A DNA stretch of 64,000 bases from an uncultured Gammaproteobacteria bacterium (lineage in GTDB: Bacteria; Patescibacteriota; Patescibacteriia; CAZSQN01). The position numbers were made by a program, and so were the translations under genes. Positions 1-59,772 of this stretch are shown here, one piece after another. The stretch spans positions 214,117 to 278,116 of the forward strand of contig CAZSQN010000001.1 in NCBI GenBank assembly GCA_964609095.1. The letters are read 5' to 3'. Position 1 is the stretch's first letter. Each line of letters starts with the position of its first letter. Below the pieces are notes generated by a model. The model saw only the letters and a list, made by a program, of their open reading frames with translations. It was not told the origin of the DNA and did not search any database.

Positions 1-19
1 TTCCGGTATTTTAGCCGGT

Positions 20-1138: not shown

Positions 1139-1141
1139 CTT

Positions 1142-3685: not shown

Positions 3686-3693
3686 ATTAAATT

Positions 3694-5118
3694 ATGGCTG
3701 ACAAAATAAGATCGGAAAGAATAAGCGCTTTGCCTCAAGATATTTTTGATGAATTGTTTAGAGATGACGAATCAGAGTTAATCCAGGATCTGATTAAAGA
3801 ACATAAACTTAAAAAAGGAACCGAAGATATTATCGCGGAGCTTATCAGAGAGTTATTTATAAAAGATATCAGTTTAGAAGATTTTGCTCCAAAAATTGCT
3901 AAAAAAATTAGCATGTCAGACGAACTTGGAAGAAAGATCGCGGTAGATATTGCCAAGACGCGGCTTTTGCCGCACGAAGATTATTTTGCCGGCGTGGGAA
4001 GGCAAATCGTGATTTGGGGAGGAGAGCCGATTAAAGCGGAAAAGATTAAACCAACATCCTTGCCCGCGGATGCCCCCAAGGGCAGGGAAGCCAAGGGCGC
4101 GGCTCCGGTTGCCGCTCCGACGGCGGAGAGCGCGCCGGCGGCCGCAAAATCTTCATTTGAGCAAAGGGCGGAAGTTGAGGAAGAAGCGGAAATTTTAAAA
4201 AAGCAAAAAGAAACGGCGAAAATCACCCCCGTTACCCAATCAATTGAAGATAAATTGAATGAGAAAATAAAAGCGGTAGTCAGCGAGGCAAAGATTGTTT
4301 TTGCCAATCCCGCGTTAACCAAACGATTTGAAACCATAATTTCCGCGCGGCTTCGGGACGTGCGCGACGGGGCGGAAACAAAGGAAATGCTCTTGCGGGC
4401 GGATAAGGTTGGGGGTTTGGGATTGGGCGCGGCAGAAGCGGAGCGGGTTAGTCAGATTCTAAATCGCGTTTTTGCCGAATTTAGCGGTTTATATAGGAAA
4501 GAGGAAGAGGCAAAAAGGAAAGCGTTTTTAGCCGAACAAGCCGAGCGCGAGGCCTTGCGCAAAGCGGAACGGGAGAGGCGCGAGCGCGAGGAGCGGGAGA
4601 AGCTTTACGCCCGCGTTACCGGAGTCGCGCCCAGCATTACGAAGTTAGAAGTTAGAAGTTCGAAGGTGGAACAAGTGTCAGTCAGACCTCCAGCTTCCAG
4701 CTTCTCCCGACATAAAGTCGGGATCCCGACCGAAGTGTCGGGACAAATTCCAACTACCAAGCCGCGCATGGAGGAAGTCAAGTTTACGCCAAAGATAACT
4801 GGTCCGGTGGAAGAACTGGCGCAAATGACTTTAATTGAGTTTCGCCGTCTTTCTAAAGACGCGAAAGAGGCGGTCTTGAAGATTGGGGATAAAATTGACC
4901 TTTTGGAAGAAGAAGATTTTGGGAAAAAAGTCGCCGGCATTAAGGCCTGGCAGGGATCGGGGGTAAACAAGCTTTATCTTGATTTGCTTAAGGATGGCTT
5001 GAACAGGGGTGTCGGCATTTCCGCCATTATTGATGAAAAAGCAAAAGGAGGAGCGGAAACTCTAACCAAAGCCGAATTTGATGCTATAATGGAGTTGAAC
5101 AGAAATTTAAGATTCTAA
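3694..5118 (+). CDS. Hypothetical charged/coiled-coil protein with an internal heptamer-repeat insertion
   Basis: 474-aa ORF, KE-rich, ERERREREEREK stretch. Nucleotides 4641-4707 carry (AGAAGTT)x3 plus a CCAGCTT-type inverted arm translated in frame. Confidence 0.45.
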   Translation: MADKIRSERISALPQDIFDELFRDDESELIQDLIKEHKLKKGTEDIIAELIRELFIKDISLEDFAPKIAKKISMSDELGRKIAVDIAKTRLLPHEDYFAGVGRQIVIWGGEPIKAEKIKPTSLPADAPKGREAKGAAPVAAPTAESAPAAAKSSFEQRAEVEEEAEILKKQKETAKITPVTQSIEDKLNEKIKAVVSEAKIVFANPALTKRFETIISARLRDVRDGAETKEMLLRADKVGGLGLGAAEAERVSQILNRVFAEFSGLYRKEEEAKRKAFLAEQAEREALRKAERERREREEREKLYARVTGVAPSITKLEVRSSKVEQVSVRPPASSFSRHKVGIPTEVSGQIPTTKPRMEEVKFTPKITGPVEELAQMTLIEFRRLSKDAKEAVLKIGDKIDLLEEEDFGKKVAGIKAWQGSGVNKLYLDLLKDGLNRGVGISAIIDEKAKGGAETLTKAEFDAIMELNRNLRF

Positions 5119-5127
5119 CCTTAATGT

Positions 5128-5160
5128 AGTCGCATCCCGATACAAATTATCGGGATGCGA
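5128..5160 (+). other. 11-bp perfect stem-loop (gcatcccgata-caaat-tatcgggatgc) immediately after the stop of the preceding CDS
   Basis: Seen directly. No U-run follows, so a terminator function is uncertain; possible processing or stability element. Confidence 0.4.
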
Positions 5161-5233
5161 AAGCGAGTGGCCGCGTAGCGTTATGAGGGCTACTGCAAGG
5201 AGCCCGAATATCAGCGAAGCGGGAAAAGGAGCT

Positions 5234-5671
5234 ATGCCTGAACAATTCGTCGTGCCGCAATTCCTTGATGTGGAAGATAAAATTTTGGGGCCGATAACGG
5301 CGCGCCAGTTTATTATTTTAATTGTCACTTTTTTGGTCGCGGCCATAATGTACCGCCTGCTTGCTTTCGGATATTTTATTTTTTTTGGAATACTGGTTAT
5401 TGCCGCCGGAGCCGTGATTGCTTTTGTGCGCATCAACGGCCAGCCGTTTCATTATTTTCTGCTTAATTTGGTGCAGACCTTGCGCCGGCCGCCGCTCCGC
5501 GTTTGGAACAAGCAGCTATTCGCGGCAGAATTAAAAGAATTGATGAACATCGCGCCGGCGCCGCCGCCTCCGCCAAAACCGGTAAAAGAAAAATTGGCCG
5601 CCAGCCGCATTAACGAATTGACTTTAATACTTAACACCGGCGGAGCGTATAATCCGGAACAATACAAATAA
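5234..5671 (+). CDS. PrgI-family (VirB3-like) small membrane protein of a type IV secretion/conjugation-like system
   Basis: N-terminal motif VPQFLDVEDKILGPITARQF followed by two TM helices. Strong RBS aaaaggag 5 nt before the ATG at 5234; the ORF track begins earlier at 5183. The motif matches my recollection of PrgI-family proteins. Confidence 0.55.
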   Translation: MPEQFVVPQFLDVEDKILGPITARQFIILIVTFLVAAIMYRLLAFGYFIFFGILVIAAGAVIAFVRINGQPFHYFLLNLVQTLRRPPLRVWNKQLFAAELKELMNIAPAPPPPPKPVKEKLAASRINELTLILNTGGAYNPEQYK

Positions 5672-5675
5672 AAGA

Positions 5676-5750
5676 GGGTACAGGGGACAGGGTAGAGGGT
5701 ATAGTAAATTAAAAAACTAAACCCTAAACCCTAAACCCTAAACCCTAAAA
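5676..5750 (+). repeat. Heptamer-repeat leader element, CCCTAAA class (copy A): GGGTACAGGGGACAGGGTAGAGGGTATAG + spacer + (CCCTAAA)x4, ending ...AAAAATGTG
   Basis: Near-identical copy at 6451-6525; related copies at 39576-39643, 28572-28624 (minus) and 33101-33181 (minus), all abutting start codons. Confidence 0.8.
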
Positions 5751-5761
5751 ATGTGCCTGAG

Positions 5762-6445
5762 ATGCAAAATCCAAAAATTGTTTCCTCTCGTCCGACAACT
5801 GCCACGCAGAGATATTTGGATATTTCCGAAATCAAAGACGATGCGGTGATATTAAAAGACGGCTCTTTGCGCGTCGTGCTTATCTGCTCCAGCATAAATT
5901 TTGCCTTAAAGTCCGAAGACGAGCAGAACGCGCTTATTTCCGCTTATGTGGGATTTTTAAATTCTTTGGATTTTCCCATTCAGGTGGTAGTGCAGTCGCG
6001 GCGGCTTAACATTGAGGATTATATTGAACGGTTAAAAGCGGTTGAAAAGCAGCAAAAAAACGAGCTTCTGCGCGTGCAAATAGCCGATTATCGCACTTTT
6101 ATCGCCGAACTGGTGTCATTGGGGCAGATTATGTCCAAGCGGTTTTATGCGGTCGTGCCTTACAGCCCTTTGGGCAACAAAAGAAAAGGTTTTTTCGCGC
6201 GGTTTAGCGAGGCGCTTTCTCCGGCTCTTTCGGTAAAACTCCGCGAGGAACGGTTTCAGGAAAAGAAAAAGGACATGATGCTCCGCGTAAATCAAGTTAT
6301 TTCAGGATTGGCATCGATGAGCGTGCAGGCGGTCCAGCTTGATTCGCAAGGATTAATAGAGCTTTATTATAATGTTTATAATCCGGATATTTTTGAATCC
6401 CAGCCGCTCGCGGAACTGGGCCAATTGCGGGTGGAACAAAGATAA
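5762..6445 (+). CDS. Hypothetical protein in the T4SS-like cluster (start either GTG 5753 or ATG 5762)
   Basis: ORF track 5753..6445; no TM segments; lies between the PrgI-like and VirB4-like genes. Confidence 0.45.
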   Translation: MQNPKIVSSRPTTATQRYLDISEIKDDAVILKDGSLRVVLICSSINFALKSEDEQNALISAYVGFLNSLDFPIQVVVQSRRLNIEDYIERLKAVEKQQKNELLRVQIADYRTFIAELVSLGQIMSKRFYAVVPYSPLGNKRKGFFARFSEALSPALSVKLREERFQEKKKDMMLRVNQVISGLASMSVQAVQLDSQGLIELYYNVYNPDIFESQPLAELGQLRVEQR

Positions 6446-6450
6446 AACCA

Positions 6451-6525
6451 GGTTATAGGGGACAGGGTAGAGGGTATAGTAAATTAAAAAACTAAACCCT
6501 AAACCCTAAACCCTAAACCCTAAAA
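6451..6525 (+). repeat. Heptamer-repeat leader element, CCCTAAA class (copy B), directly upstream of virB4-like
   Basis: GGTTATAGGGGACAGGGTAGAGGGTATAGTAAATTAAAAAACTAAACCCTAAACCCTAAACCCTAAACCCTAAAAATGTG; the in-frame start of the following gene is the GTG overlapping the terminal ATG. Confidence 0.8.
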
Positions 6526-6527
6526 AT

Positions 6528-8438
6528 GTGGCATTTAGACCGCTCCAAATTTTCAAGAAAAAACAGCCGGGGATAGTGGCTCCTGTTTTGGGCGAGGAGG
6601 CGCGCAAGGCGGAAGAAGCCAAAGCCAAATTGGAAAAGATCGCGCTTGAAGAAGAGCGCGTATATCGCCGCGGCGTTGTTTCTATCCGCGATATTATCGC
6701 TCCGGCCTCTCTTAAAGTTGACCCGTCAATGGTAGTTTTAGGCGACAATTATGTCCGCACTCTTTTTGTGCTTACTTATCCGAGATACATTTCCGTGGGC
6801 TGGTTTGCCCCGATATTGAATCTTTCCATGACGCTTGATGTGGGAATGTTTTTTTATCCCGTGCCGGCGGATATTATTTTGAAACAGTTAAAAAATAAAG
6901 TCGGCACATTGGAGGCGCAAATTATTTCTGATTCAGAAAAAGGCGCGCCGCGCGATCCGCTTCGCGAAACCGCGCTCCGCGATGTTGAAAGTTTGCGCGA
7001 TTCCTTAACCCAGGGCACCGAGCACTTCTTCCAATACGCGCTTTATGTGACTCTTTACGCCAAGAGCGCTGAAGAGCTGAACAAGCGCACGGAAGAGATA
7101 GAAACGCTCTTCGGCTCAAAACTTATCTACACTAAACGGACGTACTACCAATCAGAACAGGGTTTTAATTCTACCATTCCTCTTGGCAATGACGAGCTGA
7201 TGATAACCTTTAACATGAATTCATCTCCGATCGCCTCGTCGTTTCCTTTTATGTCGGCGGACCTTACTTCCGACGGGGGAGTGCTTTACGGCATCAATCG
7301 GCATAATAATTCTTTAATTTTATTTGACCGGTTTTCTCTGCAGAACGCCAATATGGTGGTGTTTGCCACTTCCGGCGCGGGCAAAAGCTACGCGGTCAAG
7401 CTGGAAGTTTTGCGGTCATTGATGATGGGAACAGATGTTATTATTATTGACCCGGAGATGGAGTACAAACATCTTTCCGACGCGGTAGGCGGCACTTATA
7501 TTTCCATTTCTTTGGCTTCGGAGAGCAAAATCAATCCTTTTGAACTGCCGCGGCCCGTGGGAGAGCAGATTAGCACGGAAGACATAATCAGAAGCGCGGT
7601 TATCACGGCCAAAGGCCTGCTGCGCATAATGTTTGGCGCCATCACCCCGGAAGAGGATTCCCTTGTAGACCGCGCCTTGCTTGAAACCTATGCCAAAAAA
7701 GACATTACGGCCGCATCTGATTTGACCAAAGTTGAACCGCCGATAATGCAGGATTTCGCGGAAGTGCTTGAAGGAATGGAGGGCACGGCCAATCTTGTTT
7801 TGAAAATTAAAAAATATACCGAAGGAACTTTTGCCGGCTTGTTTAACTCTCCCACCACGGTTGACCTTAAAAATCCTTTCGTTGTGTTTTCCGTGCGCGA
7901 TCTTGAGGATGAACTGCGGCCTATGGCCATTTACGCCATTGTCAATTTTATCTGGAATGTGGTTAGGAGCGAACGGAAAAAGAGAATCCTCGTTATTGAC
8001 GAGGCCTGGTGGCTGATGCAAAACGATGATTCCGCCAAGTTTATTTTCGCGCTGGTCAAGCGCTGCAGAAAATACTATTTGGGCATAACTACCATTACGC
8101 AGGATGTAAACGACTTTTTGCGTTCTCCATACGGCCAGGCCATAGTCACCAATTCTTCAATTCAGATGCTGTTAAAGCAATCGCCCGCGTCAATTGATTT
8201 GGTGCAAAAAACGTTTCTTTTGACCGAAGGGGAAAAGTATCTGCTCTTGGAGAGCGCGGTTGGCGAGGGCATATTTTTTGCCGGACCGCGGCACGCGGCC
8301 ATAAAGGTTGTGGCTTCTTACACCGAAGACCAGCTTATCACCACGGACCCGCGGCAATTATTGGAAATTGAACAAGCAAAGAAAGAATTTGAGGCGCAGT
8401 TAAAGGGCGGCGAACCGGAAGCGCCGGACATTGGATAG
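6528..8438 (+). CDS. virB4: VirB4/TraC-family type IV secretion ATPase
   Basis: Walker A (FATSGAGKSY) and Walker B (ILVIDEAWWLM) motifs, ~636 aa, typical VirB4 N-terminal region; GTG start overlapping the ATG of the upstream element. Confidence 0.8.
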   Translation: MAFRPLQIFKKKQPGIVAPVLGEEARKAEEAKAKLEKIALEEERVYRRGVVSIRDIIAPASLKVDPSMVVLGDNYVRTLFVLTYPRYISVGWFAPILNLSMTLDVGMFFYPVPADIILKQLKNKVGTLEAQIISDSEKGAPRDPLRETALRDVESLRDSLTQGTEHFFQYALYVTLYAKSAEELNKRTEEIETLFGSKLIYTKRTYYQSEQGFNSTIPLGNDELMITFNMNSSPIASSFPFMSADLTSDGGVLYGINRHNNSLILFDRFSLQNANMVVFATSGAGKSYAVKLEVLRSLMMGTDVIIIDPEMEYKHLSDAVGGTYISISLASESKINPFELPRPVGEQISTEDIIRSAVITAKGLLRIMFGAITPEEDSLVDRALLETYAKKDITAASDLTKVEPPIMQDFAEVLEGMEGTANLVLKIKKYTEGTFAGLFNSPTTVDLKNPFVVFSVRDLEDELRPMAIYAIVNFIWNVVRSERKKRILVIDEAWWLMQNDDSAKFIFALVKRCRKYYLGITTITQDVNDFLRSPYGQAIVTNSSIQMLLKQSPASIDLVQKTFLLTEGEKYLLLESAVGEGIFFAGPRHAAIKVVASYTEDQLITTDPRQLLEIEQAKKEFEAQLKGGEPEAPDIG

Positions 8439-8515
8439 AATCTGGAATATGGAATCTGGAATTTAGAAAAGAAAATTCTAAATTCTAAATTCTAAATTCT
8501 AAATTCAGTTCTACC
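8439..8515 (+). repeat. Heptamer-repeat leader element, ATTCTAA class: imperfect (GGAATNT)n arm + aagaaa + (ATTCTAA)x4, ending 8 nt before the ATG at 8516
   Basis: Arms are imperfect reverse complements; same architecture as the CCCTAAA class; related copy at 42981-43059. Confidence 0.75.
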
Positions 8516-9121
8516 ATGACGCGTACCCGACGCAACATACTAATAATGTCTTCCGGAGCTATCCTTATAGGGTTGGCGATATTTTTATTGCTTCGTCCGA
8601 AGAAGTCCGCGTTTGTCCCTCCATCGGCGCCGCCGGAGGCAAAATTGCCCGAAGCGATTTTGCCGGCGCCTCCGACCGCGCCGGCGGCGGCAAATCTTGC
8701 TCCTGAAGAGCGGACAGAAATTCAGAAACAGCGCAGCCGCGAGTTAGAGGCGCGAAGAGTCGCCCAGTCGTTTTTGGAGCGTTACGGCAGCTTTTCCAAT
8801 CAGGGAAATTTTGAAAATATTTCCGATTTAGAGCCGCTTATGACCGTGAATATGAAAAAAGTCGCGGCAAACTATGTGCGCGAGCAAAAATCCCTTTATC
8901 CGGCGGAGAAGGGATATTATGGAATAACCACCCGCGCGCTGACTTCAGCTCTTTCCGCTATGAGCGAATCGCGCGTTATTGTGACTATCGGAACGCAGAG
9001 GCAGGAGTCGGCGGGGAGTTCGGAGACGCCGCGGATTTTATATCAGGAAGCGACTCTTCAATTGGTTAAAATCGGTTCAGTTTGGAAAATAGACGATGTA
9101 AGCTGGGGGAGCGTAAAATAA
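8516..9121 (+). CDS. Bitopic membrane protein (N-terminal TM, Pro/Ala-rich linker, C-terminal globular domain); VirB8-like topology, identity not established
   Basis: 201-aa ORF; TM ILIMSSGAILIGLAIFLLL; immediately downstream of virB4-like. Confidence 0.4.
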   Translation: MTRTRRNILIMSSGAILIGLAIFLLLRPKKSAFVPPSAPPEAKLPEAILPAPPTAPAAANLAPEERTEIQKQRSRELEARRVAQSFLERYGSFSNQGNFENISDLEPLMTVNMKKVAANYVREQKSLYPAEKGYYGITTRALTSALSAMSESRVIVTIGTQRQESAGSSETPRILYQEATLQLVKIGSVWKIDDVSWGSVK

Positions 9122-9192
9122 ATTTCTAATGACTAATTAAACATGTGTGGATAAGTAAAAATACTTAAACTAAGTTATACTTAAAATTTTAT

Positions 9193-13017: not shown

Positions 13018-13024
13018 ACATAAT

Positions 13025-15484: not shown

Positions 15485-15522
15485 AAGGTCGCAAAATATT
15501 AATCATTAAAAAGTTATAATTT

Positions 15523-15966
15523 ATGAATTTAAATTTTTTGAATCCTCTGGAAACCAAACTGGCAGGATTGCTCGCTAAAGCGCCGCATCTCCCGGAAAAG
15601 TTCCGGCAGGGGCTGGTGAAAGCCGCGCCTTGGCTGTCTGTAGTCGGCCTTCTCTTGGTTCTGCCGCTTCTTTTAGCCACCCTAGGATTATCGGCTTACC
15701 TCTCGCGAGCGTTGCCATTTTATGGGGTTTCGTATTACGCCAGAACAAGTATCCTGACAATGATTCTTGCTATTGCCTTAGCTGTTCTTTATGCCATGGC
15801 CATCCCCGGGCTTTTTGGGCGAAAACGAATCGGCTGGCAATATCTGTTTCTGGGCTCCCTTGTTTCGGCGCTCCAAAACCTTTTATCAGGCGGCATTGTA
15901 GGCGCGCTTGTCGGCTTGGCGATCGGTCTTTATCTGCTTTTTGAAGTGCGGCAATACTACAAATAG
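15523..15966 (+). CDS. Small polytopic membrane protein
   Basis: 147 aa, about 4 hydrophobic helices. Confidence 0.45.
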   Translation: MNLNFLNPLETKLAGLLAKAPHLPEKFRQGLVKAAPWLSVVGLLLVLPLLLATLGLSAYLSRALPFYGVSYYARTSILTMILAIALAVLYAMAIPGLFGRKRIGWQYLFLGSLVSALQNLLSGGIVGALVGLAIGLYLLFEVRQYYK

Positions 15967-15991
15967 TAGAATTTGTTATAATATAAATTAT

Positions 15992-16594: not shown

Positions 16595-16645
16595 ACAAAA
16601 ACGACAATACCGTGGGACCCATCCTGTTAAACAAGCAATAAATTA

Positions 16646-17715: not shown

Positions 17716-17789
17716 TTCATAATGTCTAAGGTTAATTGAGAAATTGTGAATTCAATGAAAATTGTTAAATTAGAAATTAGTCATTTCTG

Positions 17790-18488: not shown

Positions 18489-18569
18489 ATTTTTAAATCT
18501 TGAAAATCGCTCAAAGCGGTGGATGCTGATTTATTAGCTTAATTGTATATGGTATTATAAAAGTATTGT

Positions 18570-18812
18570 ATGAGTTTTAAATCAAAACCGATAATTCTCG
18601 TCTCTATTGTTGTTGCGGTTATTATTGCGGTAGCCGGTTTTTGGTATTGGTCAAAGAGTAAGCAAGCTCCGCCTTCAGAAGAAGTTTCTTCACTGGGGAG
18701 CGAAATTTTTGAAAAAACACAAAATCCGCTGGAAGGAAAAGTGCCGGACACTAACCCCTTCAAAAACCAGAAAAATCCTTTGGATGCAATTTATCAAAAT
18801 CCGTTTGAGTAA
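18570..18812 (+). CDS. Small membrane-anchored protein
   Basis: 80 aa, one TM helix. Confidence 0.4.
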   Translation: MSFKSKPIILVSIVVAVIIAVAGFWYWSKSKQAPPSEEVSSLGSEIFEKTQNPLEGKVPDTNPFKNQKNPLDAIYQNPFE

Positions 18813-25187: not shown

Positions 25188-26546
25188 TTATTTCAATATC
25201 TCCAGAGCTTCAGTGACGGAGTTGATTTGGATTAAGGATTCGGACGATTCAAGTTTCGCGGCTTTGGGCACGAGCGCGTATTTGAATCCGAGTTTTTGCG
25301 CTTCGCGCACCCGGCGTTCAATTTCTTTTACCGGACGGATTTCGCCGGAGAGGCCGACCTCGCCTATAGCAGTCATATCTTTGGGAAAGGGTCTGCCTAT
25401 ATAAGCGGAAGCGATTGAAGCAAGAATGCCGAGATCGGCGGCTGGCTCGCGTATTTTAAGTCCGCCGCCAACATTCACATGCACGTCGGTATGGTCTAAA
25501 TACAAGCCGGCGCGACGGGAAAGCACGGCTAAAATCAAGTCCAATTTTTTGGGGTCAATTCCGGAGGCGCGCCTTTGCGGATATCCCCAAGATGTCTTGT
25601 GAGTTAAGGCCTGGATTTCCGCCAAAAGCGGCCGTGTGCCCTCAAGGAGCACGGTAATCACAGAGCCGGGAATGGCTGTTTTTCTTTCTTGTATAAAAAG
25701 AGCCGAGGGATTGGGCACTTCCATAAATCCGTTTTCAGTATGATTAAAAATGCCGACTTCGTCTGTCGCGCCAAACCTGTTTTTGCTTGCGCGGAGCACT
25801 CTGAAGGAATGTTGAGAATCGCCTTCAAGAGTAAGTACGACATCAACCAAGTGTTCCAGCGATTTTGGTCCGGCAACCAGCCCGTCTTTTCTGACTTGAC
25901 CCACCAGAATTATCGGAAGATTATTTTGTTTTGCGGTTTCGGTTAAAATGCTTACGGCCGCGCGAATTTCTCTCGGCGAGCCGCTTTTGCCGCCCTCTGC
26001 CCGTAAGGTGTTTACGGAATCAATGATAGAAAGCGCCGGGCGTTCTTTGGCAATGGTGGCGGCGATAGAGGCGGCGTCGGTTTCATTAAGAAAAAGCACG
26101 GAGGAGCCGATGGCGTTAATTCTCGCGAATCTGGAATAAATTTGTTCGGCTGATTCTTCGCCGGAAGTATAGAGCACCGGCCCTGATTTTTTGGCAATCG
26201 TTCCGCACACTTGCGCGAGAAGCGTGGATTTGCCTATGCCCGGTTCTCCGGAGAGGAGTATCACGCTTCCGGCCGCGATTCCTCCGTCCAACACGCGGTC
26301 AAATTCGTTAATGCCGGTTTTTATGCGCGGGGATTTGGGTAAGGATATCTCTTGGAGGGATATTGGTTTTAAGGCAGGGACTGTTGAATTTGGAATTTGG
26401 AATTTGGAATTTGATATTTTAGATTCCATATTCAAGATTCTAGATTCTGATAAAGATCCCCATTCGCCGCATTCAAAACAACGCCCAGCCCACTTTGGGG
26501 TCTGCGCGTCGCATTTGGAACAGACATAAACAATGCTCGATTTCAT
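25188..26546 (-). CDS. radA: DNA repair protein RadA/Sms, carrying an in-frame heptamer-repeat insertion in the zinc-finger/ATPase linker
   Basis: C4 zinc ribbon CSKCDAQ...CFECGEW, Walker A GEPGIGKSTLL, Lon-like C-terminus. Residues ESRILNMESKISNSKFQIPNS are encoded by the repeat at 26386-26452. Confidence 0.85.
   Translation of the reverse strand: MKSSIVYVCSKCDAQTPKWAGRCFECGEWGSLSESRILNMESKISNSKFQIPNSTVPALKPISLQEISLPKSPRIKTGINEFDRVLDGGIAAGSVILLSGEPGIGKSTLLAQVCGTIAKKSGPVLYTSGEESAEQIYSRFARINAIGSSVLFLNETDAASIAATIAKERPALSIIDSVNTLRAEGGKSGSPREIRAAVSILTETAKQNNLPIILVGQVRKDGLVAGPKSLEHLVDVVLTLEGDSQHSFRVLRASKNRFGATDEVGIFNHTENGFMEVPNPSALFIQERKTAIPGSVITVLLEGTRPLLAEIQALTHKTSWGYPQRRASGIDPKKLDLILAVLSRRAGLYLDHTDVHVNVGGGLKIREPAADLGILASIASAYIGRPFPKDMTAIGEVGLSGEIRPVKEIERRVREAQKLGFKYALVPKAAKLESSESLIQINSVTEALEILK
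26386..26452. repeat. Heptamer-repeat hairpin element (GAATTTG/AGATTCT arms) inside the radA coding sequence
   Basis: gaatttggaatttggaatttggaatttgatattttagattccatattcaagattctagattctg; same architecture as the intergenic leader elements; translated in frame. Confidence 0.7.
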
Positions 26547-28571: not shown

Positions 28572-28624
28572 AGGGTTTAAGGTTTAGGGTTTAGGGTCTT
28601 TTATACCCTGTACCCTGACCCATC
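28572..28624 (-). repeat. Heptamer-repeat leader element, CCCTAAA class (copy D, minus orientation), between the TolB-like stop and the dsbA-like start
   Basis: Minus strand reads GGGTCAGGGTACAGGGTATAAAAGACCCTAAACCCTAAACCTTAAACCCT-ATG. Confidence 0.75.
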
Positions 28625-33100: not shown

Positions 33101-33181
33101 TGTTTTGAGGGTATAGGGTTTAGCGTTTAGGGTTTAGGGAAATTCACTAAACGCTATACGCTAACCGCTAAACGCTTTGGT
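33101..33181 (-). repeat. Heptamer-repeat leader element (copy E; GCGTTTA-type arm + CCCTAAA-type arm), filling the entire htpX-stop to clpC-start spacer
   Basis: Minus strand: TAA-ACCAAAGCGTTTAGCGGTTAGCGTATAGCGTTTAGTGAATTTCCCTAAACCCTAAACGCTAAACCCTATACCCTCAAAACA-ATG. Confidence 0.75.
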
Positions 33182-34057: not shown

Positions 34058-34109
34058 AGTTATAAAATCCTCAATTCCGAAGTCCGAATACCGAAAAAAT
34101 AACTAATAC

Positions 34110-34300
34110 CCAATAAATGTCTAATGTCTAATTGCTCTAATTTCTAATCAATGACTAAATCCTAATTTGCAATTCTCAATTTAACAATTTTCATTGAATT
34201 TACAATTTTCCAATTGACATTTATGATTGAATCATTGAGAATTTATTGAAAATTAGAAATTAGAAATTGATAATTGGAGTTTGTTTAGAAATTAGGAATT
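34110..34300. repeat. ~190-bp imperfect palindrome built from AATTAGA/TCTAATT and CAATT heptamer/pentamer units between htpX and lemA
   Basis: Left arm ctaatgtctaattgctctaatttctaat...; right arm ...aattagaaattagaaattgataatt; symmetric about ~34200. Confidence 0.65.
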
Positions 34301-34337
34301 AGAAATTTCTTCGTGATTCTGGTTTCGGGATTGGTTA

Positions 34338-34907: not shown

Positions 34908-35045
34908 AATGTTGGTTTGAGGGTTGAGTATTGAGGTTTGAGGGCTTTATATAGTCCTAAAATCTCATACCTCATTTCTCAAATCTTTTAGAGAATAATC
35001 TTAAACTTATTATATTCCTGTGTCAAGAGATTGTAAATTAAAAAA

Positions 35046-38230: not shown

Positions 38231-39583
38231 ATGAAATTCCCTGTTTCCATATTTAAGGCCTACGACATAAGAGGCGAGTCGCCGGGCGAGATTACTTCAG
38301 AATTTGCCGAGCGGTTAGGCCGGGCGTTTCCTCATTTTACGGACGCCAAAACGGTTGTGGTTGGCCGCGACGCGCGCAAGACATCGCCGGAATTGGCAGA
38401 CGCGCTTATAAAAGGAATAATCTCGCAGGGCGTGGATGTGATTGATATTGGTATGGTTTCCACTCCCATGTTTTATTTTGCGGTCGGTGAATACGAGCTA
38501 CATGATGCCGGCATTATGGTGACGGCCTCGCATAATCCGGCAAAGTACAACGGGTTCAAGCTGGTGCGCGGTGACGCTTTTCCCATAGGCGCCAATTCCG
38601 GAATGTATGAGTTGCGGGATTTGGTCACCTCCGACGCCGAATTTCCGAACCAAAAAATCGGGAATGTTGTGGAGACGGATATTTCCGAAGCGTATTTGGA
38701 AAAGATTTTTTCTTTGGTTGATCCGGAGACATTAAAACAATTTAATTTGGCAATTGATAACGGCAACGGCATGGGCGGCGTTATCCTGCCGCGCTTGCTT
38801 AAAGCCATACCCGGATGGAACTCAGTTTTGTATATGGAGCCGGACGGCAATTTTCCAAACCACGAGGCCAATCCTTTGAAAGAAGAAACCCTTGACGATC
38901 TAAAAAAATTGATAAAAGAAAAAAAATCCGATCTGGGCGCGGCTTTTGACGGAGACGCTGACAGAATAGGATTTGTTGACGAGAACGGAGCAATCGTGTC
39001 TGGAGATTTGATTACCGGCATACTGGCGGCGCGAATTTTGGAAGAGCATCCCGGCAGTCCCGTCCTCTACGATGTTCGTTCCAGCTGGGCGACCAAAGAA
39101 GCGATTCTCGTGGCTGGCGGAAAGCCAATAATGTGTCCAGTGGGACACGCGCTGGTTAAAAAGATGCTCCGCGATACCGGCGCGGCCTTTGGCGGAGAAG
39201 TATCCATGCATTATTACTTCCGTGATTTTTACAATGGAATGGAGTCGTCTGACCTCGCGTTTTTGATTTTGCTTTCCATTTTAACTGATGCGGGCAAAAC
39301 GCTTTCCGAACTTGTCGCGCCGCATCGGAAATATTTCCATTCCGGGGAAATAAATTTTAAAGTGGAAGACAAAGAAGGAAAGTTTAAGGAGATTGAGGAA
39401 AAATATAAAAGCGGCGCCAAAGAGATTATCCGCATTGACGGAATACGAATGGAATTTAACGATTGGTGGCTTAATTTGCGCGCGTCCAATACCGAACCGC
39501 TGATGCGGCTCAATTTGGAGGCAAAATCAGAAAGCAAGATGCGTGAAATGAAAGAGGAAATAAGCAATTTATTAAGGGTATAG
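38231..39583 (+). CDS. Phosphoglucomutase/phosphomannomutase family protein
   Basis: Active-site TASHNP(A) (phosphoserine loop), Mg-binding DGDADR, ~450 aa. Confidence 0.75.
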   Translation: MKFPVSIFKAYDIRGESPGEITSEFAERLGRAFPHFTDAKTVVVGRDARKTSPELADALIKGIISQGVDVIDIGMVSTPMFYFAVGEYELHDAGIMVTASHNPAKYNGFKLVRGDAFPIGANSGMYELRDLVTSDAEFPNQKIGNVVETDISEAYLEKIFSLVDPETLKQFNLAIDNGNGMGGVILPRLLKAIPGWNSVLYMEPDGNFPNHEANPLKEETLDDLKKLIKEKKSDLGAAFDGDADRIGFVDENGAIVSGDLITGILAARILEEHPGSPVLYDVRSSWATKEAILVAGGKPIMCPVGHALVKKMLRDTGAAFGGEVSMHYYFRDFYNGMESSDLAFLILLSILTDAGKTLSELVAPHRKYFHSGEINFKVEDKEGKFKEIEEKYKSGAKEIIRIDGIRMEFNDWWLNLRASNTEPLMRLNLEAKSESKMREMKEEISNLLRV

Positions 39584-39643
39584 GGGATAGGGTAGAGGGT
39601 ATAGAAACTACTAAACCCTAAACCCTAAACCCTAAACCCTAAA
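39576..39643 (+). repeat. Heptamer-repeat leader element, CCCTAAA class (copy C), overlapping the PGM stop codon and ending at the murI ATG
   Basis: GGGTATAGGGGATAGGGTAGAGGGTATAGAAACTACTAAACCCTAAACCCTAAACCCTAAATTG-ATG. Confidence 0.8.
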
Positions 39644-40429: not shown

Positions 40430-41520
40430 GCATTGTTACTATTTTAATTTTTCTTGCCGTTTTGTCTCTTTTGGTTTTTGTCCATGAGTTTGGCCATTTT
40501 ATCACTGCCAAACGCGCCGGCGTCAAAGTGGAAGAGTTTGGATTCGGGTTTCCTCCGTGCGCTTTTGGCATTAAAAAAGGAGGCACGGTTTATTCCATAA
40601 ATTGGCTGCCGCTGGGAGGTTTTGTGAAAATCAAGGGCGAGAGCGGGCAGGATTGGGAAGATAAAGACAGTTTTTCCAATAAAAAAATTTGGAAAAGAAT
40701 GTTGATTGTCGGAGCGGGCGTTTTAATGAATGTTTTTCTTACCGCCGTTCTTCTTGCTATCGGCGCCGGAGCGGGTATGCCGCGAGTGGTGCCGGAAGAG
40801 GACAGGTTTGCGCGGGTTAAAGACGATTCCATTGAAGTGGTCTCGGTGCTTTCCAACTCTCCGGCCGAGAAGGCGGGTATAATGGAGGGCGATGCGGTGG
40901 CGGCCATTGACGGCGTTTCTTTTGGAAAAATTGAGGAAGCGCGCGCTTATATCGCTTCAAAGGAAGAGGTTCAGATTAAAATCAAGCGCGAGGAGCTGGA
41001 ACTTGTTAAGTCCATTAAAACGGAAGAACTGAAAGAGGCGGGAAGGCGGGGGATCGGAGTCGCGCTTTTGCATACCGGCATTGTAAGCTATCCTTGGTAC
41101 ATAGCCCCGCTTAAAGGCATTGAAGAAACGGGGATTTATATCAGAGAAATATCTTTTGCCTTTGGACGGATAATCGGAGATATGTTTGTCGGACGGCCGG
41201 TTTCCGTGGATTTGCAGGGGCCGGTGGGCATAGCCGTGCTTACCGGTAGGGTGGCCCGTCTCGGTTTTGTTTATCTTCTGCAGTTTACCGCGCTTCTTTC
41301 CATCAATCTGGCTTTTATAAATATATTTCCGTTTCCGGCGCTTGACGGGGGCAGAATATTATTTTTGGCCATTGAGGGAATCAGGAAGAAGCCGGTGCCT
41401 AAAAAAGTGGAAGCAATGATCCATAACATAGGATTTATTTTGCTTATAACTCTCGTGATTATTGTGACTTTTAGAGACATATTGAGATATGGAGGCGGAT
41501 TTTTGGACAGATTTAATTAA
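40426..41520 (+). CDS. rseP: RseP-like site-2 protease (M50 zinc metalloprotease with PDZ domain)
   Basis: HEFGHF (HExxH), central PDZ-like region, C-terminal LDGG motif, 4 TM helices. Confidence 0.75.
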   Translation: MSIVTILIFLAVLSLLVFVHEFGHFITAKRAGVKVEEFGFGFPPCAFGIKKGGTVYSINWLPLGGFVKIKGESGQDWEDKDSFSNKKIWKRMLIVGAGVLMNVFLTAVLLAIGAGAGMPRVVPEEDRFARVKDDSIEVVSVLSNSPAEKAGIMEGDAVAAIDGVSFGKIEEARAYIASKEEVQIKIKREELELVKSIKTEELKEAGRRGIGVALLHTGIVSYPWYIAPLKGIEETGIYIREISFAFGRIIGDMFVGRPVSVDLQGPVGIAVLTGRVARLGFVYLLQFTALLSINLAFINIFPFPALDGGRILFLAIEGIRKKPVPKKVEAMIHNIGFILLITLVIIVTFRDILRYGGGFLDRFN

Positions 41521-41583
41521 TTTCAAATTTATGATTTCAAATTTCAGAATTTTGAAATCAACAATCTGAAATCTGAAATTAAA
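41521..41583 (+). repeat. Heptamer-repeat leader element, CTGAAAT/TTTCAAA class, spanning the rseP stop to the pheS ATG
   Basis: tttcaaatttatgatttcaaatttcagaattttgaaatcaacaatctgaaatctgaaattaaa-ATG; arms are imperfect complements. Confidence 0.75.
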
Positions 41584-42980: not shown

Positions 42981-43059
42981 TGAATTTGGAATCTGGAATC
43001 TTGAATTTTGATTTAATTAAATTCTAGATTCTAATTTCTAAATTCTAGATTCTTGAAAG
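42981..43059 (+). repeat. Heptamer-repeat leader element, ATTCTAA/GGAATNT class, upstream of pheT
   Basis: gaatttggaatctggaatcttgaattttgatttaattaaattctagattctaatttctaaattctagattcttgaaag-ATG. Confidence 0.75.
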
Positions 43060-45501
43060 ATGAATATCAACATTTCTTACAACTGGCTTAAAGAGTATCT
43101 TTCGACGAAAAAATCGCCGGCAGATTTGGCGCGCCTGCTCTCTCTTTCCGGCCCATCGGTTGAGAGAATCCATCATTTTGGGAGCGAATGGGATAAAATC
43201 GTGGTTGGCAAGGTTTTGGAGATTAAACCGCATCCCAACGCGGATAAATTAAGAATTGCGATTACTGATATTGGCAGTAGAAAAATGGAGATTGTCTGCG
43301 GCGGAACAAATCTTCAAAAAGAAATGAAGGTGGCGGTGGCGCTCTCCGGCGCTCGCGTGCGCTGGCACGGAGAAGGGGAATTGATTGAGCTTAAGCCAAC
43401 GGAAATCCGCGGCGTAAAGTCCGAGGCCATGATCGCGGCCGCCAATGAAATAGGATTATTTGAGCTTTTTCCGCACAAAGAAAGGGAAGTGATGGATTTA
43501 AGCGGACTAAAGGCAAAACCCGGCGCGGCCCTGACTCTTGCTTTGGGTCTTGAAGATTATGTTTATGACACGGAAGTGACCACCAACAGGCCGGACCTTT
43601 TGGGGATAATCGGCTTTGCCCGCGAGGCCAGCGCCATCACGCGCGAGAAATTTGACGAGAAAAAGATTTTGTCTTTGGAAAAATATCCCAAGCCGGGTTT
43701 AAAAGACGCGATTGCGGTTAAGGTCTTGGATAAGAGACATTGTCCGCGCTACACGGCCGCGGTTGTGCGTGGCGTAAAAGTTGGTCCGTCTCCTTTGTGG
43801 ATGAGGATTCGTCTTGCCCGCGCCGGCATAAGACCGATTTCAAATATCGTTGACATTACAAATTATGTGATGCTGGAGATGGGAGAGCCAATGCACGCGT
43901 TTGATTTAAAAAAGCTTAACGGCGGCATTGTTGCGCGCAAAGCCCGCGCCGGAGAAAAGATTAAAGTTTTAAATGGGGCCGATTATAAGCTTTCCGATGA
44001 AACATTAGTTATTGCCGACGCGGAAAAACCCATTGCCATTGCCGGCATTATGGGCGGAGCGGAAACCGGAGTCAGCGGTGAAACAACCGACATTGTTTTG
44101 GAAGCGGCGACTTTTGATCCTGTGAGTATCAGGAGGAGTTCGCGTTTATTAAATCTCCGAAGCGAGTCGTCATTGCGGTTTGAAAAGGGTCTCTCAACCG
44201 ACTTGCCGCACCGCGCGTTGGCTAGAGCTCTTCAGCTTGTGCTGGAGATTGCCGGCGGAACTTGTGGGCCGATGTCTGACATTCGTTCCGCGGTTTATAA
44301 ACCGTTCAAATTTTCCATAGGCGTGGAAGAAGCGCAAAGGTTAATCGGCGCTCCCATTGCCGTCGGAGAGATGAAACGGATTTTGACCTCATTGGGCTTT
44401 AAGCTACAAGCTACAAGCTACCCCGCACCAGAACAAGTTCGGTACGGGGCAGGCAAGCTACAAGCTCGTGTGCCCTATTTCCGCGACCACGATATTGAAT
44501 CTGGACGGGATTTGGCAGAGGAAGTGGCGCGCGTTTACGGCTATCATAAACTTCCGTCAGTTCTGCCTGAAGGCAAAATCCCGTTGCGCGAGCGCCCCGA
44601 TGAACTTATTTGGGAGGACAAAATTAAAGAAGCGCTGGCCGGAGCGGGAGGAACAGAAATAATCACTTATTCTTTCACCTCGGCGGGCGCGATGAGAAAA
44701 GTTGATTTTGATGAAAAAAGCGCAACGCGCATTGCCAATCCTCTGACTTCTGATTTTGAATATATGCGGACTAGTTTAATCCCGTCGGCCCTGGAAGTTG
44801 TGTCAAAAAATCAGGAAAATTTTCCAACGGTGAAACTTTTTGAAATCGCCAATACTTATCATCCGCGGAAAAATGATTTGCCGGAAGAGTCGCCAAATCT
44901 TCTTGTGGCCGTTTCCGCAAAGAAAAATGAGCCCTCGCCTTACTACACGGTAAAAGGAATACTGGAATTGGTTTCTTGCAGGTTGGGGTTAGATTTTGAT
45001 TTTGAAAATAAATGTCTCCAAGCCGAACTTTGGCATCGGGGAAGGAGCGTTTGTGTTAGAAATAACGGGAAGATTGTCGGCGCCATGGGCGAACTGCATC
45101 CAAAAGTTCTTGCCAATTTTGGCATAGAACATCGGCTGGCCGCGCTTGAACTTCATCTTGGCGAGCTCTATGGGGCAATGAGAGAGATTGGCGCATATAT
45201 TCCGGTTCCGGAGTTTCCGGCCGCAAAAAGGGACGTTTCTTTCATTATTTCCGAGCGTACGCCGTATGAAGAGGTTGTAAAAATAATGAAGGCGGCGGAT
45301 AAACTGATTGTTGGCGCGGAGCTTTTTGATATTTTCACTGGCCCCTCAACTGCGCTCGGGGCGGGCAAAAAGAGCATGGCGTTTCATATAACCTATCAAT
45401 CAAAAGAACGGACGCTTTCTTCGGAAGAGGTGGAAGCGGCGCACAAAAGATTGGCTGATATGCTTAAATTGAAGATTAGAGCGGAAGTGAGAAAGGGTTA
45501 A
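43060..45501 (+). CDS. pheT: Phenylalanine--tRNA ligase beta subunit, with an in-frame palindromic repeat insertion in the B5-like region
   Basis: tRNA-binding N-terminus, B3/4, B5 and anticodon-binding C-terminus recognisable. The conserved LGF...VPYFR...DLAEEVARVYGY block is interrupted by ATSYPAPEQVRYGAGKLQ, encoded by the element at 44401-44468. Confidence 0.85.
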   Translation: MNINISYNWLKEYLSTKKSPADLARLLSLSGPSVERIHHFGSEWDKIVVGKVLEIKPHPNADKLRIAITDIGSRKMEIVCGGTNLQKEMKVAVALSGARVRWHGEGELIELKPTEIRGVKSEAMIAAANEIGLFELFPHKEREVMDLSGLKAKPGAALTLALGLEDYVYDTEVTTNRPDLLGIIGFAREASAITREKFDEKKILSLEKYPKPGLKDAIAVKVLDKRHCPRYTAAVVRGVKVGPSPLWMRIRLARAGIRPISNIVDITNYVMLEMGEPMHAFDLKKLNGGIVARKARAGEKIKVLNGADYKLSDETLVIADAEKPIAIAGIMGGAETGVSGETTDIVLEAATFDPVSIRRSSRLLNLRSESSLRFEKGLSTDLPHRALARALQLVLEIAGGTCGPMSDIRSAVYKPFKFSIGVEEAQRLIGAPIAVGEMKRILTSLGFKLQATSYPAPEQVRYGAGKLQARVPYFRDHDIESGRDLAEEVARVYGYHKLPSVLPEGKIPLRERPDELIWEDKIKEALAGAGGTEIITYSFTSAGAMRKVDFDEKSATRIANPLTSDFEYMRTSLIPSALEVVSKNQENFPTVKLFEIANTYHPRKNDLPEESPNLLVAVSAKKNEPSPYYTVKGILELVSCRLGLDFDFENKCLQAELWHRGRSVCVRNNGKIVGAMGELHPKVLANFGIEHRLAALELHLGELYGAMREIGAYIPVPEFPAAKRDVSFIISERTPYEEVVKIMKAADKLIVGAELFDIFTGPSTALGAGKKSMAFHITYQSKERTLSSEEVEAAHKRLADMLKLKIRAEVRKG
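44401..44468. repeat. Palindromic heptamer-repeat element inside pheT: (AAGCTAC)x2-3, a ccccg...cgggg hairpin, then (CAAGCTA)x2
   Basis: aagctacaagctacaagctaccccgcaccagaacaagttcggtacggggcaggcaagctacaagct; duplicated KLQA codons flank it. Confidence 0.7.
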
Positions 45502-51099: not shown

Positions 51100-51183
51100 A
51101 GCTTGTAGCTTTTAGCTGTTAGCTTTTAGTTGTTTTGGTTTATTTCTATCAGTTAAAAGCTAAAAGCTAAAAGCTTTTTTATT
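51100..51183 (+). repeat. Heptamer-repeat leader element, AAAAGCT class, upstream of thrS
   Basis: gagcttgtagcttttagctgttagcttttag...ttaaaagctaaaagctaaaagctttttt-att-ATG; arms are complementary. Confidence 0.75.
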
Positions 51184-58830: not shown

Positions 58831-59772
58831 ATGAGGAAATTACCAAAGATTATCGTTATAGCCGGGCCGACCGCAACGGGTAAGACCGATTTGGGTATTA
58901 AGATTGCCAAAAAATTTAATGGAGAAGTAATTAGCGCTGACTCAAGACAGATTTATCGTGGAATGGATATAGGGACGGGCAAACCTAAAATTTCAGATTT
59001 CAGATTTCAGATTTCAGAAGTTGATGGCATAAAACATCACTTGATAAGTATCGTGGATCCGGATGAAGAATTTACCGTTGCGCTTTGGAAACAAGAAGCA
59101 ATCGCGGCGATTAAAAATATCTTAACGCGCAATAAATTGCCGATAATTGTCGGCGGTACGGGACTTTATATTAAATCATTGGTGGAAAATTTGGATATTC
59201 CTCAAGTGCCGCCGGATTTTGCTTTGCGCAAGAAGCTGGAATTAAGAATTAAGAAGCAAGGATTGAAAGTTTTATATAAAGAACTTTTGAAATTAGATCC
59301 GGGAGCAAAAGGCGTTGTTGACCAGCGTAATTCCCGGCGAGTCATCAGGGCGCTGGAGGTCTGCCTTATAACGGGCAAGCCGTTTAGTTCGCTTCAAAAA
59401 CAAGGTGAGCCGATGTTTGAAGTTTTAGAGCTGGGAATAGACGTCCCGAGAGAAAAACTTTATAAGCGCATAGATAGACGCGTTTTGGAAATGTACAAGG
59501 AAGGGTTGCTTAAAGAAACAAAAAAATTTTTGAAAAGATATTCGCCGCATATTCCCGCAATGAGCGGGATTGGCTATAAGGAAGCAGGGGAGCATTTGGC
59601 CGGTAAAATCAGTTTGGAAGAAGCAATTGTTAAAACGCAGCTTCGTACCCATGCTTATGCCCGCCGCCAGCTTATCTGGTTTAGGAAGGATAAGAAGATC
59701 AAATGGATAAAGACTCAAGAACAGGCGGAAAAGCTGGTTGAGATTTGCCTTTTAGCTCTAAATGTGTTATAG
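58831..59772 (+). CDS. miaA: tRNA dimethylallyltransferase, carrying an in-frame (ATTTCAG)x4 heptamer insertion
   Basis: P-loop IVIAGPTATGKT, conserved QIYRGMDIGT. The block between GT(G/A)KP and HHLI is lengthened by ISDFRFQISE, encoded by 58989-59018. Confidence 0.85.
   Translation: MRKLPKIIVIAGPTATGKTDLGIKIAKKFNGEVISADSRQIYRGMDIGTGKPKISDFRFQISEVDGIKHHLISIVDPDEEFTVALWKQEAIAAIKNILTRNKLPIIVGGTGLYIKSLVENLDIPQVPPDFALRKKLELRIKKQGLKVLYKELLKLDPGAKGVVDQRNSRRVIRALEVCLITGKPFSSLQKQGEPMFEVLELGIDVPREKLYKRIDRRVLEMYKEGLLKETKKFLKRYSPHIPAMSGIGYKEAGEHLAGKISLEEAIVKTQLRTHAYARRQLIWFRKDKKIKWIKTQEQAEKLVEICLLALNVL
58989..59018. repeat. (TTTCAGA)x4 heptamer tandem repeat inside miaA
   Basis: aatttcagatttcagatttcagatttcaga; same heptamer class as the pheS leader element. 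Confidence 0.8.

Follow-up and report, generated by a model that had tools for sequence, protein, structure and literature searches.

The stretch analysed here (the window, 64,000 nt of contig CAZSQN010000001.1) contains an operon for a PrgI-family protein, a TraC-like protein and a VirB4-like ATPase. The gaps on both sides of the TraC-like gene are occupied by copies A and B of a short element built from GGGTAnA and CCCTAAA heptamers, and three further copies (C, D and E) flank housekeeping genes (Table 1). These elements form a family of dispersed palindromic repeats that have a strict polarity, are placed from stop codon to start codon, are homogeneous within a genome, turn over between genomes and show some conservation. 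Contig JACOZF010000007.1 (GCA_016181485.1) is identical to the window over the 16,445 bases compared, and a TraC-like protein identical to the one encoded here is named as belonging to Candidatus Uhrbacteria bacterium, of the candidate phyla radiation (CPR)/Patescibacteria.

Five copies of a two-arm element between genes

All five copies were found at the coordinates given in the initial annotation, and they align as one family. A search with CCCTAAACCCTAAA, allowing at most two mismatches, gave 20 matches against 0.55 expected, and the pattern of the G-rich arm gave 34 against 7.8. Tandem Repeats Finder (TRF) reported (CTAAACC)x4.7 with 100% identity in copies A, B and C. Copies A and B are identical from the second 5′ unit through AATGTG; the two differences between them both fall within the first 5′ unit. 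Copy C departs from these two chiefly in its loop. Copy D is shorter, with about three units per arm, and its last CCCTA overlaps the ATG. Copy E is a hybrid or degenerate copy that combines a 5′ arm of the AGCGTTT type with CCCTAAA and CGCTAAA units in its 3′ arm. The consensus proposed initially for the G-rich arm is exact in copies A and C; copy B starts with GGTTATA, copy D has three G-tracts, and copy E carries a GCGTTTA variant.

The elements had been described as ending exactly at the downstream gene's start codon. Their proximity to the start was confirmed but the exactness was not, as they end 0–8 nt from it: the distance is 3 nt to the GTG in copies A and B and 8 nt in copy E, copy D overlaps the ATG, and copy C ends 0 nt from a TTG or 6 nt from the likely ATG. 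Of the claim that two copies also abut or overlap the upstream stop codon, the overlap holds for copy C, in which a TAG (39581–39583) lies inside the first unit, and the contact holds for copy E as it had been delimited. The upstream stop lies 3–14 nt before the 5′ arm in copies A, B and D. The use of GTG as the start codon after copies A and B (5753 and 6528) was corroborated by orthologues, in which the N-terminal codons are conserved and vary by synonymous changes. The orientation of the copies in the window tracks gene direction and not replichore, since the cumulative GC skew is essentially monotonic.

Gene calls on the matching contig start the TraC-like gene at 5762 and the VirB4-like gene at 6549, downstream of both of these orthologue-supported starts, and such calls are a consequence to bear in mind in annotation; the hairpins described below may mislead start-codon prediction. 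Two other ideas about copy B were discarded. It did not split a VirB4 gene, because the 230-amino acid TraC-like protein is encoded by a separate gene (about 225–240 amino acids) in all 120 best homologues listed. Translational bypass across copy B, where an AGA before the stop and an AGA after the GTG had been noticed, was dropped because every relative has the two open reading frames (ORFs) as separate genes.

Shine-Dalgarno motifs are all but missing from this genome. Of the 54 ORF starts in the window (those at 3694, 9193, 16646 and 21093 among them), only 1–2 have a Shine-Dalgarno-like motif at proper spacing (GGAG or GAGG at −5 to −13, for instance at the start at 35497). The leaders are A/T-rich and G-poor.

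Predicted hairpins and other heptamer arrays in the window

The proposal that the two arms are imperfectly complementary and could form a hairpin was supported by RNA folding, with minimum free energies (MFE) of −20 to −33 kcal/mol for copies A to E. Measured against dinucleotide shuffles, the values were −33.4 kcal/mol (z −4.65) for copy A, −30.7 (z −3.79) for copy B, −29.5 (z −4.82) for copy C, −20 (z −2.0) for copy D and −23.7 (z −6.0) for copy E. In the predicted fold, 5-bp helices (UAGGG:CCCUA) follow one another like rungs, with 1x1 or 2x2 internal loops in between. Folding is about as favourable for the antisense as for the sense strand, and G-U pairs show no consistent sense preference. 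We had considered G-U pairs as a marker of the functional RNA strand and rejected them, given that the energies of the two strands do not differ consistently.

The initial annotation had pointed to G-quadruplex (G4) motifs on both strands. The canonical motif of four G3 tracts with spacers of 1–7 nt was indeed present on the + strand of copies A and C; copies B and D have three tracts and copy E has none. As an organising principle the G4 was not supported: other families in the window (GAATCTG/AAATTCT, AGCTTTT/TAAAAGC and TTTGAGA/CCTCAAA) share this architecture and number of units without any G-runs. When G-quadruplexes were allowed in ViennaRNA, the hairpin and never a G4 was returned for 14 of 14 elements. 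The G4 potential is most probably an incidental by-product of the sequence of one unit, since the G-rich arms of copies B, D and E do not reach four G-tracts, and the likeness to the plant telomere repeat is a coincidence of a short unit.

No Rfam 15 family other than three tRNAs reached its gathering score in the window, and a permissive Rfam search of 5500–8700 gave only sub-threshold chance matches (mir-1252 and Six3os1). As a side observation, ARAGORN placed a tRNA-Arg with anticodon GCG at 22993–23066; the usual form in bacteria has ACG (inosine). A promoter in or before the elements was also considered. The two TATAAT-like sites (5648 and 6377) turned out to be the Tyr-Asn codons within a conserved YNP motif, and promoter-like sites number 35 compared to a shuffle mean of 25.6, which is less than 2 standard deviations above.

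The CCCTAAA repeats are one family among many heptamer-repeat hairpins that fill gene gaps. The window holds 19 period-7 arrays, compared to 0 in shuffles, and 0–5 arrays for periods 5, 6 and 8–15. Most period-7 arrays are paired: two arms of mutually complementary units form one imperfect hairpin that reaches from one stop codon to the start that follows. Arrays of other sequence, which the initial annotation had not mentioned, are equally abundant; most follow the same two-arm design and some lie inside ORFs (Table 1). Of the 33 co-directional spacers that measure 35 nt or more, 12 are period-7 hairpins, and in these 12 the widest helix leaves 0–11 nt unpaired on the 5′ side and 0–14 nt on the 3′ side. 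The two convergent spacers of the window carry other, non-heptamer hairpins. Of the sister elements, F folds with −25.5 kcal/mol (z −5.8) and I with −31.9 kcal/mol (z −5.3), and the composite spacer at 34058–34337 folds into one long hairpin (−65.2 kcal/mol, z −5.1) that runs from 8 nt after the stop codon to 17 nt before the start. Element I is the sole copy with a terminator-like T-run, and element J lies downstream of a promoter-like TTGACA...TAAGAT.

Table 1. Heptamer-repeat elements of the window. For spacer elements the spaced slash in the last column separates the two flanking genes.
Feature	Coordinates	Strand	Repeat structure	Flanking genes or location
Copy A	5676..5750	+	four GGGTAnA units, A-rich loop, (CCCTAAA)x4	PrgI-family gene (stop 5669-5671) / TraC-like gene (GTG 5753)
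Copy B	6451..6525	+		TraC-like gene (stop 6443-6445) / VirB4/TraG-P-loop ATPase gene (GTG 6528)
Copy C	39576..39643	+		phosphoglucomutase-family gene / Asp/Glu racemase (MurI-like) gene
Copy D	28572..28624	-		PD40-repeat protein gene / DsbA-like thioredoxin gene
Copy E	33101..33181	-		M48 peptidase gene / ClpB-like ATPase gene
Sister F	8438..8506	+	(GAATCTG)x3.6, loop, (AAATTCT)x4.9	fills spacer from stop of VirB4-like gene to next start
Sister G	41519..41579	+	AATTTCA / AATCTGA arms	M50 protease gene / pheS
Sister H	42982..43053	+	GAATCTG / TAAATTC arms	small EamA-like ORF / pheT
Sister I	51100..51175	+	(AGCTTnT)x4-5, loop, (TAAAAGC)x3, then TTTTTT	before thrS start
Sister J	34914..34985	-	TTTGAGA-type / CCTCAAA arms	5′ leader of LemA gene
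Composite 280-nt spacer	34058..34337	-	several heptamer arrays (AATTTCT / AGAAATT)	LemA gene / M48 peptidase gene
In-frame radA array	26386..26448	-	AGAATCT-type and (CAAATTC)x4 arms	radA, linker after zinc ribbon
In-frame two-arm array	4641..4704	+	GAAGTTA x3 / CCAGCTT x2	474-amino acid ORF 3694-5118 of the type IV secretion system (T4SS) operon
In-frame single array	58990..59018	+	(ATTTCAG)x4.1	miaA (isopentenyl diphosphate (IPP) transferase)
In-frame single array	44401..44421	+	(AAGCTAC)x3	pheT, B5 domain region

The four arrays inside genes (in radA, miaA, pheT and ORF 3694–5118) translate without stop codons and keep the reading frame in the manner of Rickettsia palindromic elements (RPE), and they may have arisen by insertion. 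In the radA array a C in place of T removes a TAA stop, and in the array at 4641–4704 a change in the third unit removes a TAG that would otherwise arise at the junction with the next unit. The radA orthologue of the related sequence L003 has (CGAAATC)x3 at the same site; the same place with a different unit implies unit-by-unit homogenisation of the arrays. As 7 cannot be divided by 3, adding or losing a single unit would shift the frame, and the arrays inside genes are therefore possible phase-variable (contingency) sites.

Some further repeats and hairpins lie outside this group. The spacer before the PrgI gene (5119–5182) contains a distinct G+C-rich hairpin family, GCATCCCGAT...ATCGGGATGC followed by GAAAGCGA, and this family recurs in the relative L147 at two junctions (4670–4785 and 5947–5980). 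The 258-nt convergent spacer at 59773–60030, between miaA and the gene at 60031–61545, folds with −88.7 kcal/mol (z −6.1) and has neither a heptamer period nor an Rfam match. A perfect (GT)13.5 repeat at 37147–37173 precedes the start of the gene at 37202–38224 by about 28 nt and lies inside the end of the divergent ORF 36815–37222.

The unit pair in other genomes and its turnover among relatives

An exact-pattern scan of one genome per species (species representatives) found the GGGTAnA/CCCTAAA hairpin at 61 loci in about 45 genomes, compared to about 2 expected by chance. The matches are labelled as more than 10 phyla and include many CPR classes, Planctomycetota, Elusimicrobia, Chloroflexi, Gammaproteobacteria, Rickettsiales, Methylomirabilota and Cyanobacteria (Chamaesiphon). 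The GC content of the matching contigs ranges from 0.43 to 0.64, and some are about 1 megabase in length. The pattern was not matched in 2.9 million viral contigs.

If the element is tied to gene starts, its copies should be biased toward start codons, as the initial annotation had anticipated. Such a bias was found among 66 copies from these genomes: 43 end between −4 and +5 nt from the start of an ORF of at least 70 amino acids on the same strand. A same-strand stop codon lies at or inside the 5′ arm in 57 of the 66, and it is often the TAG of a TAGGGTA unit. With respect to the flanking frames, 30 copies are in the sense and 2 in the antisense orientation. The 3′ arm most often has five units (31 of 63 copies), followed by four, and the 5′ arm has four to five. 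A correlation between the unit numbers of the two arms was looked for and was absent, because both numbers are narrowly fixed at 4–5. At loci in other phyla that have a visible AGGAG-like motif, the motif is situated between the element and the ATG.

Several individual loci have features of their own. The GGGTAGA/CCCTAAA hairpins of the Elusimicrobia-labelled L016, L026, L033, L054 and L056 share a palindromic loop, (T)AAGGAGCTCCTT(A), which suggests a lineage-specific subfamily. Very long arrays of more than 200 nt were observed in L054 and L060. In L064 (1529–1600, labelled Planctomycetia) the unit variants appear in the same 5′-to-3′ order in both arms (GCG,GCG,GGG,GGG and CGC,CGC,CCC,CCC), where a simple hairpin would predict a mirror order; this hints that units were possibly added at the same end of each array.

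We compared the junctions occupied by copies A and B with those of relatives whose TraC-like and VirB4-like proteins are 85–90% identical to those of the window (L001, L002, L003 and L146) or which have a TraC-like protein of about 80% identity (L145 and L147). The orthologous junctions hold GGGTAnA hairpins, AGCTTnT/AGCTAAC hairpins, 8-mer or ACGAAT-type hairpins, a one-unit seed hairpin (in L147), or nothing. No target-site duplication was evident when filled sites were compared with the empty sites of L003. Among 78 TraC-like to VirB4 junctions of more distant relatives, 48 have spacers of at most 20 nt, and the approximately 20 long spacers are nearly all 7- or 8-nt array hairpins of unrelated units. 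The contigs of these distant relatives, 510 kb of Patescibacteria sequence not chosen for repeats, were surveyed and gave 63 period-7 and 15 period-8 arrays, compared to 0 in shuffles. In this survey 75 of 93 arrays were outside the interiors of long ORFs, and a strongly complementary flank was found for 28 of 93 arrays and for 1 of 93 controls. The rule that the start-proximal arm is A/C-rich and perfect is true in the window; it failed in a survey of 80 loci (8 versus 6, with several reversed compositions).

Some copies are more similar than their surroundings. In L001, separate junctions hold four AGCTTnT/AGCTAAC copies that are nearly identical to one another (84–97%). Across L001, L146 and L003, elements of this AGCT family are 82–97% identical, with the loop counted in and with non-orthologous junctions among those compared, where 4-fold degenerate sites of the adjacent genes are only 36–48% identical. 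An element between the ATP synthase beta and epsilon genes (atpD and atpC; L017, L018, L035 and L052, one of them labelled Kaiserbacteria) has the atpD stop codon as the first TAG of its 5′ arm, and the atpC ATG overlaps its last CCCTA. It is exactly 58 nt long and 90–97% identical in three related CPR species with a 4-fold identity of 0.47–0.49. A Saccharibacterium has an 80-nt version that is 83–90% identical over the aligned part, with a 4-fold identity of about 0.2. The equal lengths and shared loops would argue either for real constraint or for recent spread of the family.

Possible roles and comparison with known systems

We favour, with moderate confidence, a reading in which the five copies belong to a single family of palindromic, non-coding and dispersed repeats made of heptamer arrays that form a hairpin bridging stop and start codons, turn over like REP and RPE elements, and act in coupling or masking of the downstream start. 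The elements are multi-copy imperfect palindromes, homogeneous within the genome and intergenic, as expected of a repeat family. Each consists of two arrays of about 4–5 units, of two largely complementary types, in which 5-bp helices alternate with 1–2 mismatched positions. Their sense placement in co-directional junctions implies that they are transcribed within the operon mRNA, as there is no room for a promoter. In that mRNA the element would fold into a long imperfect hairpin whose foot joins the upstream stop and the downstream start. With almost no Shine-Dalgarno sites, initiation would have to depend on an unpaired A-rich leader. In Bacteroidetes that lack Shine-Dalgarno sites, mRNA structure and upstream A residues tune initiation (PMC6847099). 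The hairpin may thus mask the 30 nt before the start codon, and a ribosome that terminates within the first 5′ unit, or beside it, could open the foot and release the start region. An intergenic distance of about 20 nt almost abolishes termination-reinitiation coupling (PMC10666635), and by this route the downstream gene could stay translationally coupled across a spacer of 60–100 nt that would otherwise abolish it. The evolutionary behaviour of the family would resemble that of REP/RPE-type selfish hairpin DNA: likeness within a genome would be kept by copying or gene conversion, with arrays homogenised unit by unit; from one related species to the next, the families at a given junction come, go or give way to others; and copies inside genes would survive when they hold the frame and lack in-frame stops.

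A number of observations weigh against this reading. Transcription through the elements, their folding in vivo and their effect on translation are all matters that we infer. The exact filling of spacers is also expected of any insert in a compact genome, and the copies inside ORFs together with the several families per genome fit selfish spread better. In L003 the element is missing, with the genes overlapping at junction A and 2 nt apart at junction B, and this together with the 48 short spacers among the 78 distant junctions implies that the element is dispensable there. The equal folding of both strands means that the palindrome could be maintained at the DNA level. The A/C-rich-arm and perfect-arm rules fail outside the window, the taxon names are labels of metagenome-assembled genomes, and alignment of low-complexity sequence inflates the identities between repeats to an indefinite extent. 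A tblastn search of 1.09 Mb of genome fragments with IS200 TnpA and E. coli RAYT queries gave no match to a Y1/RAYT transposase.

The initial annotation had concluded from the filled spacers that these are dedicated expression-control or coupling elements. The constraint beyond neutral expectation speaks for such a role, while the turnover, the several families and the copies inside genes point to a REP/RPE-like repeat, and an expression-control or coupling role is plausible but unproven.

The main rival is that the elements are purely selfish or neutral hairpin simple sequence repeats (SSRs), produced by slippage, template switching, an unknown transposase or gene conversion. They would have no part in expression and would persist only where they do no harm, namely in spacers, in an orientation that is tolerated, or in frame within protein linkers. 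Presence, absence and family replacement at orthologous junctions, the one-unit seed in L147, the unrelated families within single genomes and the in-frame copies in radA, miaA, pheT and the T4SS ORF are all in accord with this view. So is the lack of a link to any gene class, as the genes flanked encode T4SS proteins, aminoacyl-tRNA synthetases, proteases, chaperones and ATP synthase subunits. Against it stand the 82–97% identity of elements despite saturated synonymous sites and the common 58-nt length in three species. The unit number is also narrow (4–5 across phyla), where free slippage would broaden it, and the sense bias of 30:2 arises even though either orientation has the G-rich arm first and the C-rich arm last. 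In addition, neither a transposase in the genome fragments searched nor a viral carrier was found. We judge a purely selfish or neutral origin to be somewhat unlikely.

Heptamer-array hairpins could also be a convergent or anciently shared cross-phylum device that folds a spacer of 60–280 nt so that stop meets start at the hairpin foot, with either unmasking of the start or a shunt-like transfer of the ribosome. The translation machinery, or an RNA chaperone that binds heptamers, would then dictate the 7-nt period and the 4–5 units. We put this forward as an unlikely alternative; if true, the device would keep coupling tight without gene overlap and without Shine-Dalgarno sites.

The elements might instead be intercistronic signals for RNA processing or stability, that is, sites for an RNase III-type or other nuclease, or protective hairpins that give each cistron its own half-life. 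Hairpins between the early genes of phage T7 and REP hairpins in E. coli operons are comparable cases. The stems of 20–30 bp with regular internal loops, their location exactly between cistrons, their restriction to co-directional junctions among the window spacers and their constrained arm length would suit such signals, but an element is also present in a 5′ leader (J) and others are inside ORFs, and cleavage would leave the downstream cistron almost leaderless. We regard a processing role as improbable.

An array to which a protein with a site size of seven nucleotides binds, such as a cold-shock-domain protein or ribosomal protein S1 that opens or closes the leader, would account for the sharp preference for period 7 (period 8 is a distant second, with 15 versus 63 arrays), for the typical 4–5 units per arm and for the recurrence of the GGGTAnA/CCCTAAA unit across phyla. 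A similar proposal was made for the TAACTGA repeats of Beggiatoaceae (PMC4679880). The presence of at least five unrelated units in one small genome argues against sequence-specific recognition, and about one third of the survey arrays and most of the window arrays have a complementary arm, which single-strand binders do not need. We therefore consider binding-site arrays very unlikely.

There is little chance that the elements are the G-quadruplex switches envisaged initially, with one G4 in the G-rich arm and a (TTTAGGG)4 G4 on the other strand. Copies A and C do have four G3 tracts with 4-nt loops, copies A to C have at least (TTTAGGG)4 on the opposite strand, and G-rich heptamer repeats of Xanthomonas and Nostoc form G4 in vitro (PMC4692102). 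The absence of a four-tract motif from the G-rich arms of B, D and E, the G-run-free sister families and the folding results all disagree with this, and the preference for 4–5 units holds for units without G-runs too. Factor-independent terminators that separate transcription units, which stable hairpins at gene ends and the TTTTTT after element I might have suggested, can be almost dismissed: no T-run follows copies A to E, a terminator scan of 1–20000 flagged none of A, B and F, the start codon 0–8 nt downstream leaves no room for a promoter, and terminators would be expected in the two convergent spacers, whose hairpins are not built of heptamers.

Several known repeats invite comparison. 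The REP/BIME/REPIN elements of Proteobacteria and the RPE elements are short non-autonomous palindromes that form genome-specific homogeneous families and occupy transcribed operon spacers, and RPEs also occur in frame inside protein-coding genes. The arms described here differ from those of REP and RPE elements in that they consist of tandem heptamers with periodic mismatches; the elements also have a strict orientation to transcription and abut start codons and not gene 3′ ends or convergent spacers. If the family is selfish DNA, it would represent a REP/RPE-like repeat of a new style, one that does well in bacteria with the smallest genomes. Mycobacterial interspersed repetitive units (MIRU), according to what Supply et al. 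are said to have reported in 1997, lie in operon spacers with ends that overlap the flanking stop and start codons, and were read as preserving translational coupling. They are reportedly direct repeats of 40–100 bp coding for small peptides, and they differ from the window elements in being neither hairpins nor built on a heptamer period. REP/REPIN, RPE and MIRU may be regarded as functional or evolutionary analogues. The cyanobacterial short tandemly repeated repetitive (STRR) heptanucleotide sequences, reportedly described by Mazel et al. in 1990, are said to comprise several dispersed intergenic families of tandem heptamers per genome, of unknown function, with direct arrays that were used for fingerprinting. 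We know of no description of stop-to-start bridging hairpins among STRR, with which the window elements were compared by description only.

Direct TAACTGA repeats occur in marine Beggiatoaceae, some Cyanobacteria and Bacteroidetes (MacGregor 2015, PMC4679880). They are found as 2–6 forward units, mostly ending 1 nt before the start codon, in spacers where Shine-Dalgarno sites are rare; the units carry stops in all frames, a few arrays overlap ORF ends or lie in ORFs, and a translational role was proposed (PMC4679880). These arrays are direct, with no predicted structure, one inverted case and one dominant heptamer per genome, whereas the window has complementary pairs and many families.

The closest described class is that of the intergenic heptamer SSRs of Xanthomonas (GGGAATC) and Nostoc (GGGGA(C/T)T). 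These are heptamers with tracts of 3–4 G residues and a preference for about four units between co-oriented ORFs; on the sense strand the G-rich array comes just after the stop codon and the C-rich array just before the start, and each genome has 70–75 convergent array pairs that are capable of forming stem-loops and have no known function (Rehm et al. 2015, PMC4692102). A 2022 Nostoc preprint still describes the role of such repeats as not well worked out. The window elements share with this class an excess of 7-nt units, placement with fixed polarity between co-oriented ORFs and arrays of about four units. They differ in their units, and in that the two-arm hairpin is the rule and takes up the whole spacer from stop to start. 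The same design is built here from units without G-runs in the same genome, and G4 potential is not what unites the elements. They reside in a CPR bacterium that nearly lacks Shine-Dalgarno sites, and one unit pair occurs in more than 10 labelled phyla.

Heptamer repeats near starts have thus been noted in Cyanobacteria, Xanthomonas and Beggiatoaceae, with no function established, and searches of a literature collection for CCCTAAA or CPR intergenic repeats found no prior description in it of these elements or of the GGGTAnA/CCCTAAA pair. What is new in relation to these systems is that the repeats are pervasive in CPR/Patescibacteria, whose reduced genomes should hold little junk; that their common denominator is a two-arm hairpin bridging stop and start; that GGGTAnA/CCCTAAA recurs with the same polarity and length across the labelled phyla; and that some copies are conserved far beyond synonymous-site divergence. 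The comparison turns an old curiosity into a testable hypothesis, in which such hairpins would serve translational coupling or insulation in bacteria without Shine-Dalgarno sites.

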